In this document: positions 30,366 to 36,891 of the stretch, in pieces
Layout of the letters: every line of letters begins with the position of its first letter
Numbering within the stretch: position 1 is the stretch's first letter
Assembly (NCBI GenBank): GCA_019704295.1
Contig: AP024596.1
Coordinates: 1,984,001-2,048,000 of the forward strand
From: Sulfolobales archaeon HS-7
GTDB lineage: Archaea; Thermoproteota; Thermoprotei_A; Sulfolobales; Sulfolobaceae
Direction of reading: 5' to 3'
Length of the DNA: 64,000 nt
Position numbers and translations under genes: made by a program
Notes under the pieces: generated by a model
What the model saw: the letters and a program-made list of their open reading frames with translations, nothing else
Database searches by the model: none
What the model was told of the DNA's origin: nothing

Positions 30366-30505
30366 TCGAAATTTTATTCAATTTGCATTACACATAAGAG
30401 AGCAATGCTCACGGTTACTCACTACCACTGAGTTATTTATACTACTATGAGAGATTAATACTATATAGAAGATCATAGAGATTTATGAGATAATATGTAC
30501 CAAAT

Positions 30506-30668
30506 GGGCCGTTCATGCTTTTATTGCGAATTTAGTTTATTTAGCAAAATCAACTGAATTTAATTGAATACCATCGTATGGACTAGGTAGGGATTTATAC
30601 TTAGCAGTTTCCTGTATTTAATCTATCTTTGCTATAATTTCAATTCACAATGGAAACCTGAATCACCC
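30506..30668 (+). mobile_element. SM4-like MITE, 163 bp
   Basis: Imperfect TIR GGGCCGTTCA/TGAATCACCC; flanks TACCAAAT/CACCGAAT (decayed 8-bp TSD). Confidence 0.82.
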
Positions 30669-31315: not shown

Positions 31316-31742
31316 TGTTACAGCGAGAACTGAAATAAGGCCTTCCGAGATGGAAGAGAAGGTAATTTTAGCAATTAATAACGTATTTATTTATAAAAGT
31401 ATTAAGAAAACGAAAGATGAATTAGGATACATAATAGATGCGAAATCAGATAGTTTAGCTTCATTGACTAAAATACACAAAATGCTTAGAGAACAAAGAA
31501 TCCTCGATTCAGCCAGAAAGCATCTTTTTAGGGGAGTTGGTGAAGGAAAGCTAAAATTTATGATAAATAAACAAGCAGCATATAAGGGTATCTTAGTTTT
31601 CGCGGACGATCCAAATGAATCCCCTTTAGGTCCTATTACATTTATTGTTGAATACGTCGAACCTAAGAGTGTTATTGATTGGTTAGCACCGAAGACCTCG
31701 AACGGTAAACCGTTATGGGATAGACCTATTCCAGAATCTTGA
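31308..31742 (+). CDS. UPF0201/DUF54 RNA-binding-domain protein
   Basis: RPSE..EKV, LREQRILDSAR, NKQAA, SPLGPI, WLAPKT..GKP. Confidence 0.88.
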   Translation: MTNVTARTEIRPSEMEEKVILAINNVFIYKSIKKTKDELGYIIDAKSDSLASLTKIHKMLREQRILDSARKHLFRGVGEGKLKFMINKQAAYKGILVFADDPNESPLGPITFIVEYVEPKSVIDWLAPKTSNGKPLWDRPIPES

Positions 31743-31776
31743 TAACAAGCTAAGGTTTTCTAATAGCCTATAATTT

Positions 31777-31940
31777 GGGGCAGTTCATGGGTTCTTTGCA
31801 AATTCAGTTTAGTTAGAAAAATAGAATGAATTTAATTGAACGAACCTAGTTGACTAGGTAGACACCCACGGTCTATAGCTTCCTTTATTTGACCTATCTT
31901 AGCCATAATTACAATTCGCAATTGACACACGAATCGTCCC
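31777..31940 (+). mobile_element. SM4-like MITE, 164 bp
   Basis: Imperfect TIR; TATAATTT directly flanks both sides (31769-31776, 31941-31948). Confidence 0.87.
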
Positions 31941-32165
31941 TATAATTTGACATTCTGTTCTTCAATACTATTTAATATATATCTTGATATATAGAAAATT
32001 TATTCATAAATTTTGATTTTTCAGATAAGATTAGGAAAAAGCTATATCAGGATTTTTGATATACTATCTTAATTGGAGTTAAGGAGGGCCCGCAAGGGTA
32101 TGGACGGATAACTTTCTGATGTTTAAATAAGAGTTTGGATGTGATATATCGGTAACAATTAGCTA

Positions 32166-32328
32166 GCAGGATTCAGGTTTCCATTGCAAATTGTAATTAT
32201 TGTAAATAGTGATTAAATAAAGTAAATTGTTAAGAGCAAATCTATACCTAGTCCACTCGATAGGACTCAATTAAATTCACTCCATTTTTCTAAACAAACA
32301 GGATTCACAATGAACGTGTGCACGGTCC
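32166..32328 (-). mobile_element. SM4-like MITE, 163 bp, inverted orientation
   Basis: Reverse complement of the 30506/31777 copies; flanks ATTAGCTA/ATCAGCTA. Confidence 0.85.
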
Positions 32329-32336
32329 ATCAGCTA

Positions 32337-32527
32337 CGGAGTCACCGAGAAGTCTAAGCAGGGACTATGTGGTAGACCTCTGCACCATTTAGTAGTTCAA
32401 TATGGGGGTGCCATATGTTTACATTAGTGCTTGGTGTTGGAACAGTCCTTAATGCCTGTAGAGTCCTCTACCCCTTGGACAAGTAGATAATTAAGGACAC
32501 AAGTTCGTGGGTGATAGAGTAGTTTAC
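32337..32527 (+). mobile_element. Non-autonomous IS200/IS605-derived remnant (right end)
   Basis: CTAAGCAGGGACTATGTGGTAGACCTCT shared with about 50285; TGCCTGTAGAG; ends TAGTTTAC overlapping the rnz stop. Confidence 0.6.
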
Positions 32528-33393
32528 TTGAAGACTAGCTTTGAAAGATCTTCTGGTAAAATGGTTCTAGGAAATATTCTCTTAGCCTCGGTTAAGAGAG
32601 GGGTAGTATCGTGATACCTCGAACTGATATGGATTAAGGCTAACATTCCCACTGATGCATTTAACGCAGCCTTGGCTGCGTCTCTACTCGTCGAGTGACC
32701 AAACTCAGCGGCTGTTTCCTCGTCTAAGAACGTCGAGTCGTGAATAAGTAGATTTACCCCCTTAACGTTTTGTAACACTTCGCTACAGTATCTAGTATCC
32801 CCTGTATAGGCTATTGATATACCCTTAATTTTGTACGTTATGTATTCGACAGTAGAGGGACTAATATCCGCATGATAGCCAGTTTTAATTTTTCGGAATA
32901 AATTCCAGTCCGATATTCCAAGTTCCTTTGCCTTATTTATATCTATTTTTATTTTATCCCTTGTTCTAATTATATATCCTTGTGATTCTATAGTATGACA
33001 AGTGGGAAAGGGCGTTATTGAGAATTCCTTTGTCTCGAGAGAAGATTGAAATCTTATGTCAAATTGAGGCTTAAAAAAAGTCCCTGAGGATGAAGACTCG
33101 ATAAAATCCTGTATAGTACGAGGACCAATTATTACTAATTCCTTTTTCCTACCTAATAGTCCCATGGTTTCTAAAAGACCTGTAACGCCCAATACGTGAT
33201 CTCCATGCATGTGTGATATAGCCAATACATCTATATCCATTGGGCTTATTGATGCCTCTGAAAGCCTCTCTTGAACACCTTCACCTGCATCCAAAAGGAT
33301 CCCCACTCCTTCAACCCTTACGAATACTGCTGGCAACTTTCTATATTTAGAGGGTGCACCTCCTCCCGTTCCTAGAAAGATGATCGAAATCAA
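32524..33393 (-). CDS. rnz: Ribonuclease Z
   Basis: FLGTGGGAP, DAGEG, SHMHGDH, YTGDT, HDST, GHST, HISSRY. Confidence 0.95.
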   Translation of the reverse strand: MISIIFLGTGGGAPSKYRKLPAVFVRVEGVGILLDAGEGVQERLSEASISPMDIDVLAISHMHGDHVLGVTGLLETMGLLGRKKELVIIGPRTIQDFIESSSSGTFFKPQFDIRFQSSLETKEFSITPFPTCHTIESQGYIIRTRDKIKIDINKAKELGISDWNLFRKIKTGYHADISPSTVEYITYKIKGISIAYTGDTRYCSEVLQNVKGVNLLIHDSTFLDEETAAEFGHSTSRDAAKAALNASVGMLALIHISSRYHDTTPLLTEAKRIFPRTILPEDLSKLVFK

Positions 33394-34310
33394 GGTTTTT
33401 TCACCACATATAGGACACGTGTCATACTCTTATGCGTATAAAGATAGTGAGTTCTTAATAAAGTAAGACCGTATTCCCTTATGTCGTCTCCCCAAAAATA
33501 TTTGGAGTCGCTAAGGAAAACCAAATATCCATTTGGAGGTAATACTTCTGCAGAATAACTAAAGAGCGAGTGGAATACGTCCCTTAACAAACCTTCAATT
33601 TTTGTCGACCTAGCATAGGGCGGATCTGTTCCAATACCGTCTATTCTGAAAACGTTAGAAGTTTGTATAGTACCGAGAAATACATCACAATTACATTTAA
33701 AATGTCTTAAGTTTTCTACGGATTTCGTTAATATCTCTCGGTTAAAGTCGCTTCCAATGCACCATATTCCTTTCCAGGAAGCCTCAATCAGCGTGGAACC
33801 TAAACCTGAAAAAGGATCGTAAAATGTTTTTTTGGCACGTGATACATTCACTAAAATTCTTGCTAAGAATGAATTTAATGAGCCAGACTGAGAAAATGGT
33901 TTCTTACTATGACTTAACAAACTTCTCGTATCTCTAGAATCTCTTCTCTTTCCTACTATAGTTAAACCATCTGTAAAGAAAATATCATATGAGGGGCATG
34001 ATGTATTTTGAGATACTGTTGTAAATAAATCTATATACTTCTTTTTAGCATCTTCTTTCTTATCGTTAATGTTATGAACCGAGATATTAGCACATAGCCC
34101 TTTAATGGCTTCTATTGCATCTTTTTCATCGTTGGTTAGCAAAATAACATCACCACTGTACTTTATTGATGCGGATTTATGTGCGATATACTCGTTACCC
34201 TCGTAAAGTATTACACTGGAAAGAAGAGTGAATTCTTGCACTTCTGAGAGCGCCATAAATTCCTCTACGCTTACTGAGGGGTAGTCCATCTTTACATGAG
34301 CATATTTCAT
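33390..34310 (-). CDS. tRNA m2G10 methyltransferase (Trm11/TrmG10-like)
   Basis: DPFSGLGS SAM motif, TDPPY, THKSMTR. Confidence 0.85.
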   Translation of the reverse strand: MKYAHVKMDYPSVSVEEFMALSEVQEFTLLSSVILYEGNEYIAHKSASIKYSGDVILLTNDEKDAIEAIKGLCANISVHNINDKKEDAKKKYIDLFTTVSQNTSCPSYDIFFTDGLTIVGKRRDSRDTRSLLSHSKKPFSQSGSLNSFLARILVNVSRAKKTFYDPFSGLGSTLIEASWKGIWCIGSDFNREILTKSVENLRHFKCNCDVFLGTIQTSNVFRIDGIGTDPPYARSTKIEGLLRDVFHSLFSYSAEVLPPNGYLVFLSDSKYFWGDDIREYGLTLLRTHYLYTHKSMTRVLYVVKKP

Positions 34311-35164
34311 AGCTGTTGTACTATTAATGGGGAGATATCTATTACTTTGCCATATACAGTTGGGATTGTGTTAGTTACTATAACCTCTGATATACCGCTT
34401 TGCAAAAGTTTATTATAGTTTACTTCATTTAACAGAGAATGAACAGCTACCGCTATTACTTTCTTTGCTCCCATCATATTTTTCGCAACATTCGCTATTG
34501 TGGTCCCGGTACTTATTATATCGTCTACTATAATTACTTCTCTTTCCTTAAAGTCGAACTGAGGTATGTTAGTGATTTTAACCTCTCCTGTCACTCTATC
34601 CCGTTCTTTTTGTACTTCGATAACTTCTGCACCAATCTTACTTGCAAACCTTAGAGCCCGGCTTTTAGCTCCCCTATCTGGTGCCACAACTAATGGATCA
34701 TTAAGGGATAACTGTTCTGCCAAATACGGAAAGGGATCAATTATTTTAACAGTACCACCGAAAAAAGTCATCTCGTCATAAGAATGAGGTTCAACTACTA
34801 CAATCGATTTAGCCCCTAGAGCATACATTAACTTTAAAACTGTTTTTATGCTTATGGCTTCACCCTCTCTAAATCGTTTATTTTGTCTAGAATACGCCAA
34901 ATAGGGAATAACCGCAGTAATGTTTTGGATACCCAACTCCACTAAAGTGTCTAGTAATAATTCTAATTCTACGAGATGTTTATTCTGGGGCGGATAAAGG
35001 GATTGAATTATAAGAACGTCTTTATCATAAATAAATTCGGGTACTCGAATATAGGACTCCCCGTCTGGAAATACCCTATGTTCAACCTTAACTAGTTTAA
35101 GTTGTATTGCCTTCGCTATATTCTCGTCTATTCCATTTGTAGCAGTTCCTCCTACTATAATCAC
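34307..35164 (-). CDS. prs: Ribose-phosphate pyrophosphokinase
   Basis: FPDGE, PYLAYSRQ, APDRGA, VDDIISTGTT. Confidence 0.96.
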   Translation of the reverse strand: MIIVGGTATNGIDENIAKAIQLKLVKVEHRVFPDGESYIRVPEFIYDKDVLIIQSLYPPQNKHLVELELLLDTLVELGIQNITAVIPYLAYSRQNKRFREGEAISIKTVLKLMYALGAKSIVVVEPHSYDEMTFFGGTVKIIDPFPYLAEQLSLNDPLVVAPDRGAKSRALRFASKIGAEVIEVQKERDRVTGEVKITNIPQFDFKEREVIIVDDIISTGTTIANVAKNMMGAKKVIAVAVHSLLNEVNYNKLLQSGISEVIVTNTIPTVYGKVIDISPLIVQQL

Positions 35165-35200
35165 GCTTCATTTAAACTCACTTAAAAATAAAAACGTTAA

Positions 35201-35965
35201 GTGAGATACTGTTATGTGTACTACGTAGCGGTTACTGGGACTGCTGGTGCTGGAAAAACTACTTTCGTTGACGCTTTCTCACGATTTTTAGAAGGAAGTA
35301 ACCTGTCATCATACATAATGAACTTAGATCCCGCGGTTGAGAACCTTCCATATGTACCGGATTTCGATATAAGACAGATAGTTGATGCCAGATCCCTTTC
35401 CACCAAATATTTACTAGGTCCTAACGCTAGTCTTATCGCTTCTTACGATATGTTAGTTATTAAGGCAAAGGAGATCAAGGAGAATTTAGAATACGTAGAT
35501 GAAGATATAGTTCTTATAGACACGCCGGGGCAAATCGAACTTTTCGCATTTAGAAATAGTGGTCGCGGACTGCTTAATCTAATTGCTGAGAACACTCCTA
35601 TTATCAACTTATTTCTGATCGACGCTTCTCTAGCTGTACAGCCTTCCTCATTCATTTCCCTCTTTCTATTAGCTAACTCAATTAAATTTAAGTTACAATT
35701 ACCACAGATAAACGTGATCTCCAAGTCCGATTTATTAACTTTAGATGAAATTAGAAAAATTGAAGCGTGGATAAAGGGTGAGGAAATTTTAACTGAGTTA
35801 GGAACTCTTGATGAATATTCGTTAGAATTAGCAGAGACTGTAGTTCAAAATTTGGAGGGACGAGTTATCTTTATATCATCCACGAAAGAGTCAGGTTTTG
35901 CTGAACTTTATGGAGCATTAGAGAACTCCCTCGCAAGAGACATGTGGGATAAAGATGATGAATGA
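35201..35965 (+). CDS. GPN-loop GTPase (start perhaps GTG near 35216)
   Basis: GTAGAGKTT, NLDP, LGPN, DTPGQIE, SKSD. Confidence 0.93.
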   Translation: MRYCYVYYVAVTGTAGAGKTTFVDAFSRFLEGSNLSSYIMNLDPAVENLPYVPDFDIRQIVDARSLSTKYLLGPNASLIASYDMLVIKAKEIKENLEYVDEDIVLIDTPGQIELFAFRNSGRGLLNLIAENTPIINLFLIDASLAVQPSSFISLFLLANSIKFKLQLPQINVISKSDLLTLDEIRKIEAWIKGEEILTELGTLDEYSLELAETVVQNLEGRVIFISSTKESGFAELYGALENSLARDMWDKDDE

Positions 35966-36190
35966 ACTAATGCGCCACCCTTACGATCAGAGCCTCCCCT
36001 TTATGATGGAGATTTTCGTTTCTCAGAGAGACCTGGTTACCCCTTCATCCACAGCGGAGGTTCCATCAAACTGAACCGTTCAGTAATGCCCCGCGCGGAA
36101 GAAGGGTTTCGAAGGATTTTTCTCTGCAGAAGTGCTAGTTCCCCAGCCTCAAGGGTACTGACTAGGCTCTTACAGCCTAGGTATAAGGGA
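35962..36190 (-). mobile_element. IS200/IS605 right end / omegaRNA-like remnant without tnpB
   Basis: Inverted homolog of 15940-16161 (shared TCTCAGAGAGACCT, GAACCGTTC.GTAATGCC, GGTACTGAC); ends TAGTTCAT over the GTPase stop. Confidence 0.65.
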
Positions 36191-36891
36191 TATTATGGGA
36201 TTCGGGCTTCATTAGTTTTTCATTGAATTTAATATTCAATGCTCAGCCCTCGGACTTAGCCGAAATCACGAAACAGTGCCCAATGCATAATAAATATAAT
36301 CTACTTTATTAACTAGATTTCTACAGAAAAAATAAGTTCGAAGAATCCAACTAATGTGATAATACTTAACGAGAATTACGCCTACGTTATACCATTGTCA
36401 CAATTTACCGAGACGTAATCCCCCCAGACACAGTGTCAAATGTGTAATACACGTCATTTACTTAAAAATTTCAGGATACAGGAATAACTTACCCTACACT
36501 GCTCGATCAGGGCGATAATACAGGGAATTCCTGAATGATTAAACTCCTTTGCTAACTTCCTAAGGTTGAAATATCCCGCAATATCCTCAGTAAACTTTGA
36601 ACTTATTATGTTGAAAACTTCATTTTTAGTTCTGTTCATTAAAAGATATATAGTTACTTGTGGTTAGTTACAATTAACTAATTTTATATTATTTCTTTTT
36701 ATATAATTAAATAAATTTAATTCCATAGAGACATATTTTATAACTTTTTAGTTTATTTAGTAATTTTATTAATTATATATTGGACATTATGGCGTGGCGA
36801 TGTTAATTGACACTATGCTTAAAGTTTACCGTAATATTTATTACTGAACGCCCCCATTAAGTTAAAAATAGGATTAAGCTAGATTTAAGAT

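Follow-up and report, generated by a model that had tools for sequence, protein, structure and literature searches.

Stop codons of rnz and a GPN-loop GTPase gene that appear to be supplied by IS200/IS605-type right ends in a Sulfolobaceae-type genome

Two core genes of a Sulfolobaceae-type archaeal genome, one encoding RNase Z (rnz) and the other a GPN-loop GTPase, stop within the terminal bases of short repeats lying on the opposite strand, which raises the question what these repeats are and how their tips came to stand exactly where a gene ends. Both genes lie in the window, by which we mean the whole stretch of 64,000 nucleotides analysed here (G000:C1:1984001-2048000), in a genome of 2.15 Mb and 39.6% G+C that is called G000 in this text; G004, G015, G018, G022 and G024 denote other genomes of the Sulfolobaceae family used for comparison, and L-numbers denote individual loci in them. 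An initial annotation had read the repeats as remnants of right ends (RE) of insertion sequences (IS) of the IS200/IS605 family, and had proposed that such ends rebuild the stop codon of a convergent gene in frame, as a built-in rule that makes insertion at gene ends harmless. The left piece is referred to as element A (remA) and the right piece as element B (remB). In window coordinates the four features concerned are:

32329 to 32527, plus strand: element A, internal and right-end part, homologous to the family's tnpB-3'/guide-RNA scaffold region; ends TAGTTTAC (BLAST, alignment, RE model)
35962 to 36190, minus strand: element B, right-end part, of a second subfamily; ends TAGTTCAT (six paralogues in G000, matches in seven other genomes, alignment)
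32524 to 33393, minus strand: rnz, RNase Z, 289 aa; element A contributes with its four terminal bases the TAA stop (32524-32526) and the wobble base of the final codon (32527)
35201 to 35965, plus strand: GPN-loop GTPase gene, 254 aa; element B contributes with its four terminal bases the TGA stop (35963-35965) and the wobble base of the final codon (35962)

The letters at both gene ends and both stops are as initially described: the plus strand reads TAGTTTAC at 32520-32527, the reverse complement of 35962-35969 reads TAGTTCAT, and, by the sequence and the list of open reading frames (ORFs), rnz ends in AAG TAA and the GPN gene in GAA TGA. The gene names hold as well, since the first ORF matches the NCBIfam RNase Z model NF000801 (265 bits against a cut-off of 252) and the second the Pfam family PF03029 (GPN-loop/ATP_bind_1 GTPase; 181 bits); the NCBIfam GTPase models all scored the GPN ORF under their cut-offs.

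As far as sequence comparison tells, both pieces are right ends of IS200/IS605 (orfB/TnpB-type) elements, and they are of the non-autonomous, orfB-derived kind that resembles miniature inverted-repeat transposable elements (MITEs). Element B has six paralogues within G000 (71-76% identity), and within-genome similarity gave no paralogue of element A. Among 60 other genomes, BLAST found DNA like element A in three (13 copies in G024, two in G022 and one in G004; E down to 1e-18) and DNA like element B in seven (E down to 7e-42). The G024 copies are short non-autonomous elements of about 276-340 nt, and none of the 13 other-genome copies inspected has a tnpB-sized ORF ahead of it; neither 32063-32527 nor 35962-36190 holds a tnpA- or tnpB-type ORF, so that the window copies are not autonomous elements. 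A tblastn search with three intact TnpB proteins of G000 found nothing better than E=1.5 in the two regions, blastn of both pieces against the 3' flanks of 15 tnpB matches in G000 found nothing, and the Rfam search gave no relevant family at E<=1, with a single chance match to snoU83D. Homology to tnpB elements emerged only through the family copies in other genomes and through profiles. A profile of the last 60 bases has its best match in G000 (nhmmer, E=1.8e-14) at the end of the only intact tnpA-tnpB element (G000 1659164-1660887), in which the tnpB stop is a TAG within TAGTTCAC, and it also matches the ends of other tnpB genes and tnpB fragments of this genome. It is these family alignments, together with the motif that closes the intact element, which bear out the initial assignment to IS200/IS605 right ends.

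The exact position of the tips follows from the alignments. Among 17 copies of the element B family, similarity stops sharply at ...GGGCGGGGTAGTTCAC, eight copies end in AGTTCAC and three more are one base off, and the last base of element B is 35962. In the alignment of the element A family (12 rows) eight rows end in AGTTCAC, with which the AGTTTAC of the window copy is aligned, its last base being 32527. With the right ends mapped to 32527 and 35962, the stops of rnz and of the GPN gene therefore fall inside the last four bases of the elements. An 8-bp helix precedes TAGTTCAC in the family (82% of cells paired in 27 copies, against 45-57% in slid controls); its covariation is not significant, as 63 of 500 shuffles reach it, and in both window copies the hairpin has visibly decayed. 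Both tips, TTTAC at 32527 and TTCAT at 35962, are indeed one-base variants of TTCAC, as the initial annotation had cautioned in calling them drifted from TCAC, but drift need not be assumed for the first, since TTTAC recurs at four ends in G000 and at 11 in G004 and G018 and thus behaves as a native variant. As a separate observation, eight right ends in G004 (e.g., L146-L148 and L150) have identical ends GGGCGGGGTAGTTTAC, with model matches confined to the last 28 positions; TTTAC looks like the native tip of that subfamily, giving TAA instead of TGA on the opposite strand.

Which property of these elements could place a stop codon in frame? Left ends (LE) of the family start with CTT(N)A(T/C)GGGG...TTAAGGGGGCGAAAG or ...TTCAAAGGGGGCGGAAG. 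The start could be placed by pattern in 19 of the 39 LE-profile matches in G000 at E<=0.01, and 14 of these starts are preceded by TTTAT (9) or TTTAA (5). Read by eye, copies of the element B family are flanked by TTTAA in 10 of 12 cases, and by ATTAA and CTTAA in one each. In the elements of Saccharolobus/Sulfolobus islandicus, TTTAA is both the insertion site and the transposon-adjacent motif (TAM), and TTCAC is the fully conserved right end, which the guide follows directly (PMC11043419). The target TTTAA and the end TCAC named in the initial annotation are hence found both at the G000 junctions and in that source, and the target is extended here to TTTAT. On the opposite strand TTTA(A/T) reads (T/A)-TAA-A and TTCAC reads G-TGA-A; where the target overlaps the TAA of a convergent gene, W-TAA is therefore replaced by G-TGA at the same codon. 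At TTTAT sites a wobble A becomes G, and in nearly all codon boxes this leaves the residue as it was; at TTTAA sites T becomes G, by which the residue may change.

We therefore favour the following course of events, which would rest on nothing but the known chemistry of the family. Non-autonomous IS200/IS605 derivatives would have been inserted by the single-strand 'peel and paste' transposase of the family, 3' of a TTTAA or TTTAT that overlaps the TAA of an oppositely oriented gene (xxW TAA A on the gene strand). The target would remain on the left-end side, so that the gene would lose its W-TAA and would continue instead into the right tip, which on the gene strand reads G-TGA (from TTCAC) or G-TAA (from TTTAC); the frame would end at the same codon. 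The wobble base of the last codon would be the sole change, almost always silent for A-to-G (TTTAT) and potentially altering the residue for T-to-G (TTTAA).

If this is correct, joining the left-end flank to the right-end flank should restore an ordinary gene end, and this reconstruction was made for four cases: rnz, G000 1744608, L143 of G004 and L012 of G024. For rnz it requires the left end of element A, which lies to the left of a foreign repeat:

32063 to 32067, plus strand: pentanucleotide ACTAT flanking the left end of element A, a putative decayed TTTAT/TTTAA target, placed with moderate confidence by analogy with left ends starting CTTAAT...
32068 to 32165, plus strand: degenerate left end of element A, beginning CTTAATTGGAGTTAAGGAGGG... 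(weak LE-profile match; MAFFT alignment)
about 32166 to 32328, plus strand: unrelated MITE of about 165 nt with terminal inverted repeats, inside element A; 42 copies in G000 including this one, boundaries to within about 3 nt

Positions 32068-32165 were aligned by MAFFT with the left-end parts of six copies (L005 of G022; L006-L008, L011 and L012 of G024), they closely resemble the left end at G000 84009, and homology of the right part to the family begins at about 32329-32341. The left piece is thus more than the bare remnant it had been taken for, as it retains a degenerate left end from about 32068 and houses a foreign MITE; the left-end junction, which the initial annotation could not fix, is placed with moderate confidence for element A, and element B gave no left end. 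Joined to the right flank, ACTAT gives A-TAG-T on the rnz strand, i.e., GTC TTC AAA TAG with the same last codon and the same protein (...VFK), so that AAA TAG would have become AAG TAA; the state before insertion at both rnz and the GPN gene is what we infer here. At G000 1744608 the left-end flank is TTTAA, and the rebuilt ACT TAA A now reads ACG TGA. At L143 the flank is TTTAT, and the rebuilt GAA TAA A now reads GAG TGA inside the element; two congeners of G004 have the gene without the element, and there it ends TTG TAA A and TTA TAA A, with proteins one residue shorter. At L012 the left end is split by an IS110-like element, for which reason ATTAA, at first sight the flank, was rejected; the true flank beyond is TTTAT, and the rebuilt CAA TAA A now reads CAG TGA with the end ...EDRQ unchanged. 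All four reconstructions return the same codon and the same last residue, in agreement with the geometry first proposed, namely a stop rebuilt in frame with a change in the wobble base only. For the gene at L147 no orthologue was present in two congeners at E<=1e-30. Of five rnz orthologues, each from a different genus, those aligned as far as the G000 end finish within 0-3 residues of it, and all five (5/5) use TAG or TGA as stop, which at 45-52% protein identity and in other genera says little.

How often right ends stand on stops was counted in G000 with an RE covariance model built from 27 sequences. It gave 51 matches at E<=1, of which 50 reach the model end, a partial match (683056-683078) being dropped; to count as a case, an end had to face a convergent ORF of 100 codons or more with its stop beginning one base within the element, and shorter ORFs at the same offset (G000 118036, L089, L134, L155, L160 and L161) were left uncounted. 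Eight of the 50 ends (16%) supply the stop of a host gene, where 0.9 are expected, and this list superseded a first count of 4/22. The phenomenon thus recurs at the exact offset well beyond the two cases from which it was first conjectured. The eight ends lie at G000 271638, 1910702, 2019962 (GPN), 2016527 (rnz), 1744608, 1591912, 147063 and 43665, and the six ORFs outside the window encode a HAD hydrolase, a metallophosphoesterase, a family-less 104-aa protein, a polysaccharide-biosynthesis membrane protein, a DtxR/FeoA-type repressor and a peroxiredoxin; the HAD hydrolase ends within 0-6 residues of five orthologues. In these six, family homology extends well upstream of the tip (profile E 5e-74 to 4e-4), and for the window copies upstream homology rests on the BLAST matches to other-genome copies (E=1e-18 and 7e-42).

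The null expectation was taken from site availability: with our own crude ORF-based gene calls (2021 ORFs), G000 has 115 free xxW-TAA-A stops, counting genes of 100 codons or more, as well as 6831 TTTAW sites that lie wholly between genes, which gives 1.77%. Against this value 8/50 has P=2.7e-6, and 6/48 without the two index cases P=2e-4. Where a right end faces a gene end within 30, 60 or 90 bases, it stands on the stop in 8/16, 8/20 and 8/22 (50, 40 and 36%), as against 25, 15 and 11% expected (P=0.027, 0.006 and 0.002) under a null that overstates free downstream sites where genes are tightly packed. Among long ORFs reaching the junction, eight are in the stop-giving frame and one is in another (P=1e-3 against 1/3), the latter being antisense to the intact tnpB. 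At 14 further ends the facing ORF of at least 100 codons stops 3-75 bases before the junction. On the other side of the element, no left-end junction (0/23, with a pattern search that presupposed TTTAW) lies directly at the stop of an ORF of 100 codons or more that runs in the same direction. At G000 777596-778379 the ThyX gene has its own TAA directly abutting a right end (TAA/GTGAAC, the stroke marking the junction), three bases from the stop-supplying phase.

Insertions of this kind hit neither a coding region nor a promoter and would therefore persist while the elements decay, and through this persistence many of them would have accumulated in this old, relic-rich genome. What is established comprises the element ends, their target motif, phase and recurrence, along with a single empty-site comparison made in a relative; on this basis the supplied stops are probably a by-product of the geometry of the target motif combined with the survival of harmless insertions, where we infer that selection rather than targeting lies behind the excess.

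A number of points weigh against this reading. The match of the left end of element A to the LE profile (G000 2016065-2016113) is weak (E=0.68), and its flank ACTAT is two bases off the TTTAT target; decay of the target after it had lost its function would fit this flank. For element B the LE-profile search detected no left end nearby, so that its empty site cannot be rebuilt. In 28/29 GPN orthologues the tail ...AGGEDY.TEE...L runs five residues (four in L036) past the G000 end, and the insertion of element B, or an earlier change, may have shortened the G000 protein; since it is shorter than that of relatives, this insertion cannot be called harmless on present evidence. The harmlessness that had been assumed at the outset therefore fits rnz, where the rebuilt end gives the same protein, but is not supported for the GPN gene, which lacks the conserved last five residues. 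Seven of the 29 GPN orthologues end CTT TAA A; for the GPN gene as for rnz, the best orthologues reach 45-52% identity. Three congeners of G024 also end ...DRQ as at L012, but with CAA TGA G and not with TAA. The seeds of the RE covariance model include both window copies and 13 copies from G000, and the null inherits the crude gene calls and applies the site counts of G000 to all genomes.

The counts in relatives belong to the same side of the balance. The RE model matches 18 of 40 other genomes of the family at E<=0.01. In G004 and G018, where all 67 matches at E<=0.1 were taken in, three (L136, L143 and L147) supply the stop of an ORF of at least 100 codons (P=0.12), at 11 others the facing ORF stops 3-51 bases short of the junction, and in one case an ORF extends 20 bases into the element. 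L180 of G018 was dropped as a fourth case when its ORF proved to be a multi-copy IS transposase (28 matches in G018) inserted into the right end, and ORF context alone can therefore mislead. For the other genomes the top-scoring copies were used, of which 38 were left from 47 after removal of four from G004, three from G018 and two duplicate L096 rows; one of them (L012) qualifies (P=0.49). All relatives together give 4/105 (P=0.12), which is not above the G000 null. All 155 ends taken together hold 12 cases (P=2.4e-5), and G000 differs from the relatives with a Fisher P of 0.019. The effect thus occurs across genera and the excess is shown in G000 only, so that the genome-wide mapping of right ends suggested initially returns an excess over site availability in this genome but no significant one in its relatives. 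A hand tally of an age effect, in which old relics would be enriched on stops (4/70 high-scoring against 9/84 lower-scoring ends, L180 included), is not claimed as a result.

That the target and the right tip were shaped by selection on the element for harmless landing on convergent stops is a possible alternative, because the reverse complements of target (TAA) and tip (TGA) are both stops in the same phase, because G000 holds a 9-fold excess, and because the on-stop share exceeds expectation among right ends facing a gene end within 30, 60 or 90 nt. We consider it unlikely. TTCAC is the transposase cleavage site and forms the last bases of the guide-RNA scaffold, and TTTAA is the TAM (PMC11043419), so that both are constrained otherwise; moreover, the top-scoring copies of relatives, presumably the youngest, are near site availability (1/38; all relatives 4/105), and left ends have no matching excess (0/23 junctions). 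The 'built-in rule', understood as an evolved property, is hence not upheld: TTCAC and TTTAW are set by transposase cleavage and guide RNA, and 4/105 in relatives is near the roughly 1.8% of the null. A selected strategy in the fuller sense, in which co-adapted target and tip would let the element sit scarless on the stops of convergent, often essential, genes with its guide RNA antisense to their last codons, so that element loss would expose the gene end to TnpB cleavage, has in our judgement a low probability of the same order; if true, it would account for the 16% share in G000. It is quite improbable, in turn, that the elements landed a few bases downstream of gene ends, or inside them, and that a later deletion or truncation brought their TGA or TAA into frame, the present stop then not being ancestral. 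Such capture would explain why the GPN protein is without the last five residues of a tail kept in 28/29 orthologues, why congeners of G024 have TGA followed by GCTTTTA... where TAA A is predicted, and why the L143 protein of G004 is one residue longer than those of its congeners; however, it would need one more event at a precise position for each of 12 cases, plain rejoining already yields an in-frame TAA at the same codon in three cases whose left-end flanks are canonical (TTTAA/TTTAT), and the frame bias is 8 to 1. Mere chance juxtaposition of decayed repeats with gene ends might be suspected from the degenerate window copies, which obtain modest scores from the RE model (30 and 32.5 bits) and both belong to its seed, but BLAST relates them to family copies without recourse to that model (E=1e-18 and 7e-42) and the offset is exact in eight G000 cases against 0.9 expected, which makes this explanation extremely improbable. 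The by-product of target geometry and survival remains the reading that we prefer.

The surroundings of both elements hold further repeats, among them one next to element B:

about 36267 to 36428, strand not assigned: copy of a second short repeat family, which also adjoins the right end at G000 1910702

This family (at least 14 copies, 72-78% identity; e.g., G000 1910817-1910974) directly adjoins two of the eight right ends that supply stops; its copies may insert within IS605-derived elements or alongside them, and may have displaced the left part of element B. The 80 bases to the left of remA belong to the inverted-repeat MITE, with 41 further copies in G000. The ends of this MITE are GGGCGATTCAGGTTTCC... 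and ...GAACGCGTGAACGGCCC, and further copies at about 31700-31860 and 30440-30600, both on the minus strand, bring the number lying here within 2 kb of each other to three, one of them inside the IS605-derived element A. At G000 945455-945560 a right end of the element B family (...TAGTTCAC) is followed immediately by the internal start of an element like remA (AATGGCAGCGACTGATGGAGTCACCGAG...), and the inverted-repeat MITE has a copy close by; this order, tandem or nested, resembles the one in the window. In G024 the left ends of L008 and L012 are interrupted at CAAGGGG^TTCAAAGG by the IS110-like element, whose ORFs carry a GISKKGNKYLR-type motif and which is also found at L190; the same split position in two separate MITE copies suggests sequence-specific insertion of IS110-like elements into the left end. 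Several right ends are cut within the terminal hairpin and continue ...GGTAGACCCAAAATCAC (L017/L180 at G018 1455131, L002, L016 and L020), and the neighbour of the cut right end in G018 is an IS with a 383-aa transposase ORF and 28 matches in that genome, so that a second IS targeting the RE hairpin is possible.

How does this compare with known systems? The SisTnpB elements of S. islandicus REY15A are alike in the TTTAA site and TAM, in the right end TTCAC with the guide directly after it, and in a reRNA (right-end element RNA) that overlaps tnpB at its 3' end (PMC11043419); in the intact G000 element tnpA and tnpB are laid out likewise, with the tnpB stop inside TAGTTCAC. Unlike them, the window copies are without tnpA and tnpB, their tips are one base off (TTTAC, TTCAT), and a second subfamily here uses TTTAT. 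The available text of the SisTnpB paper makes no mention of stop-codon replacement (PMC11043419). The orfB-derived MITE-like repeats of Acidianus hospitalis W1 are likewise short and multi-copy, share one end with the downstream end of orfB/tnpB and occur in several Sulfolobales genomes, and the copies of 230-340 nt in G015, G024 and G000 fit their description; they differ in that the accessible part of that report gives no target motif, mobility evidence or relation to host stop codons (PMC3119797). Target, tip and orfB-derived mini-elements are already published (PMC11043419; PMC3119797). A literature search, with supplements and subscription journals outside it, gave no paper stating that IS200/IS605 right ends replace stop codons. 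The bacterial element IS608 of Helicobacter pylori has a tetranucleotide target, TTAC, 3' of which it inserts, and its own end is TCAA; read on the opposite strand, the two motifs give G-TAA and T-TGA, and the same geometry would apply.

No new mechanism is implied, as what is known of target and end chemistry in this family accounts for every step. The significance lies in what this chemistry permits: a very abundant transposon family can occupy the last codon of core genes (RNase Z, GPN GTPase, peroxiredoxin, metal-dependent repressor and others) without breaking them. For annotation this is a warning, as about eight gene stops of G000 are transposon-derived and such 3' ends are antisense to potential TnpB guides. 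Finally, a right-end tip on a stop codon offers a simple, countable signature for whether the target motifs of IS200/IS605 elements are shaped by harmless insertion sites.

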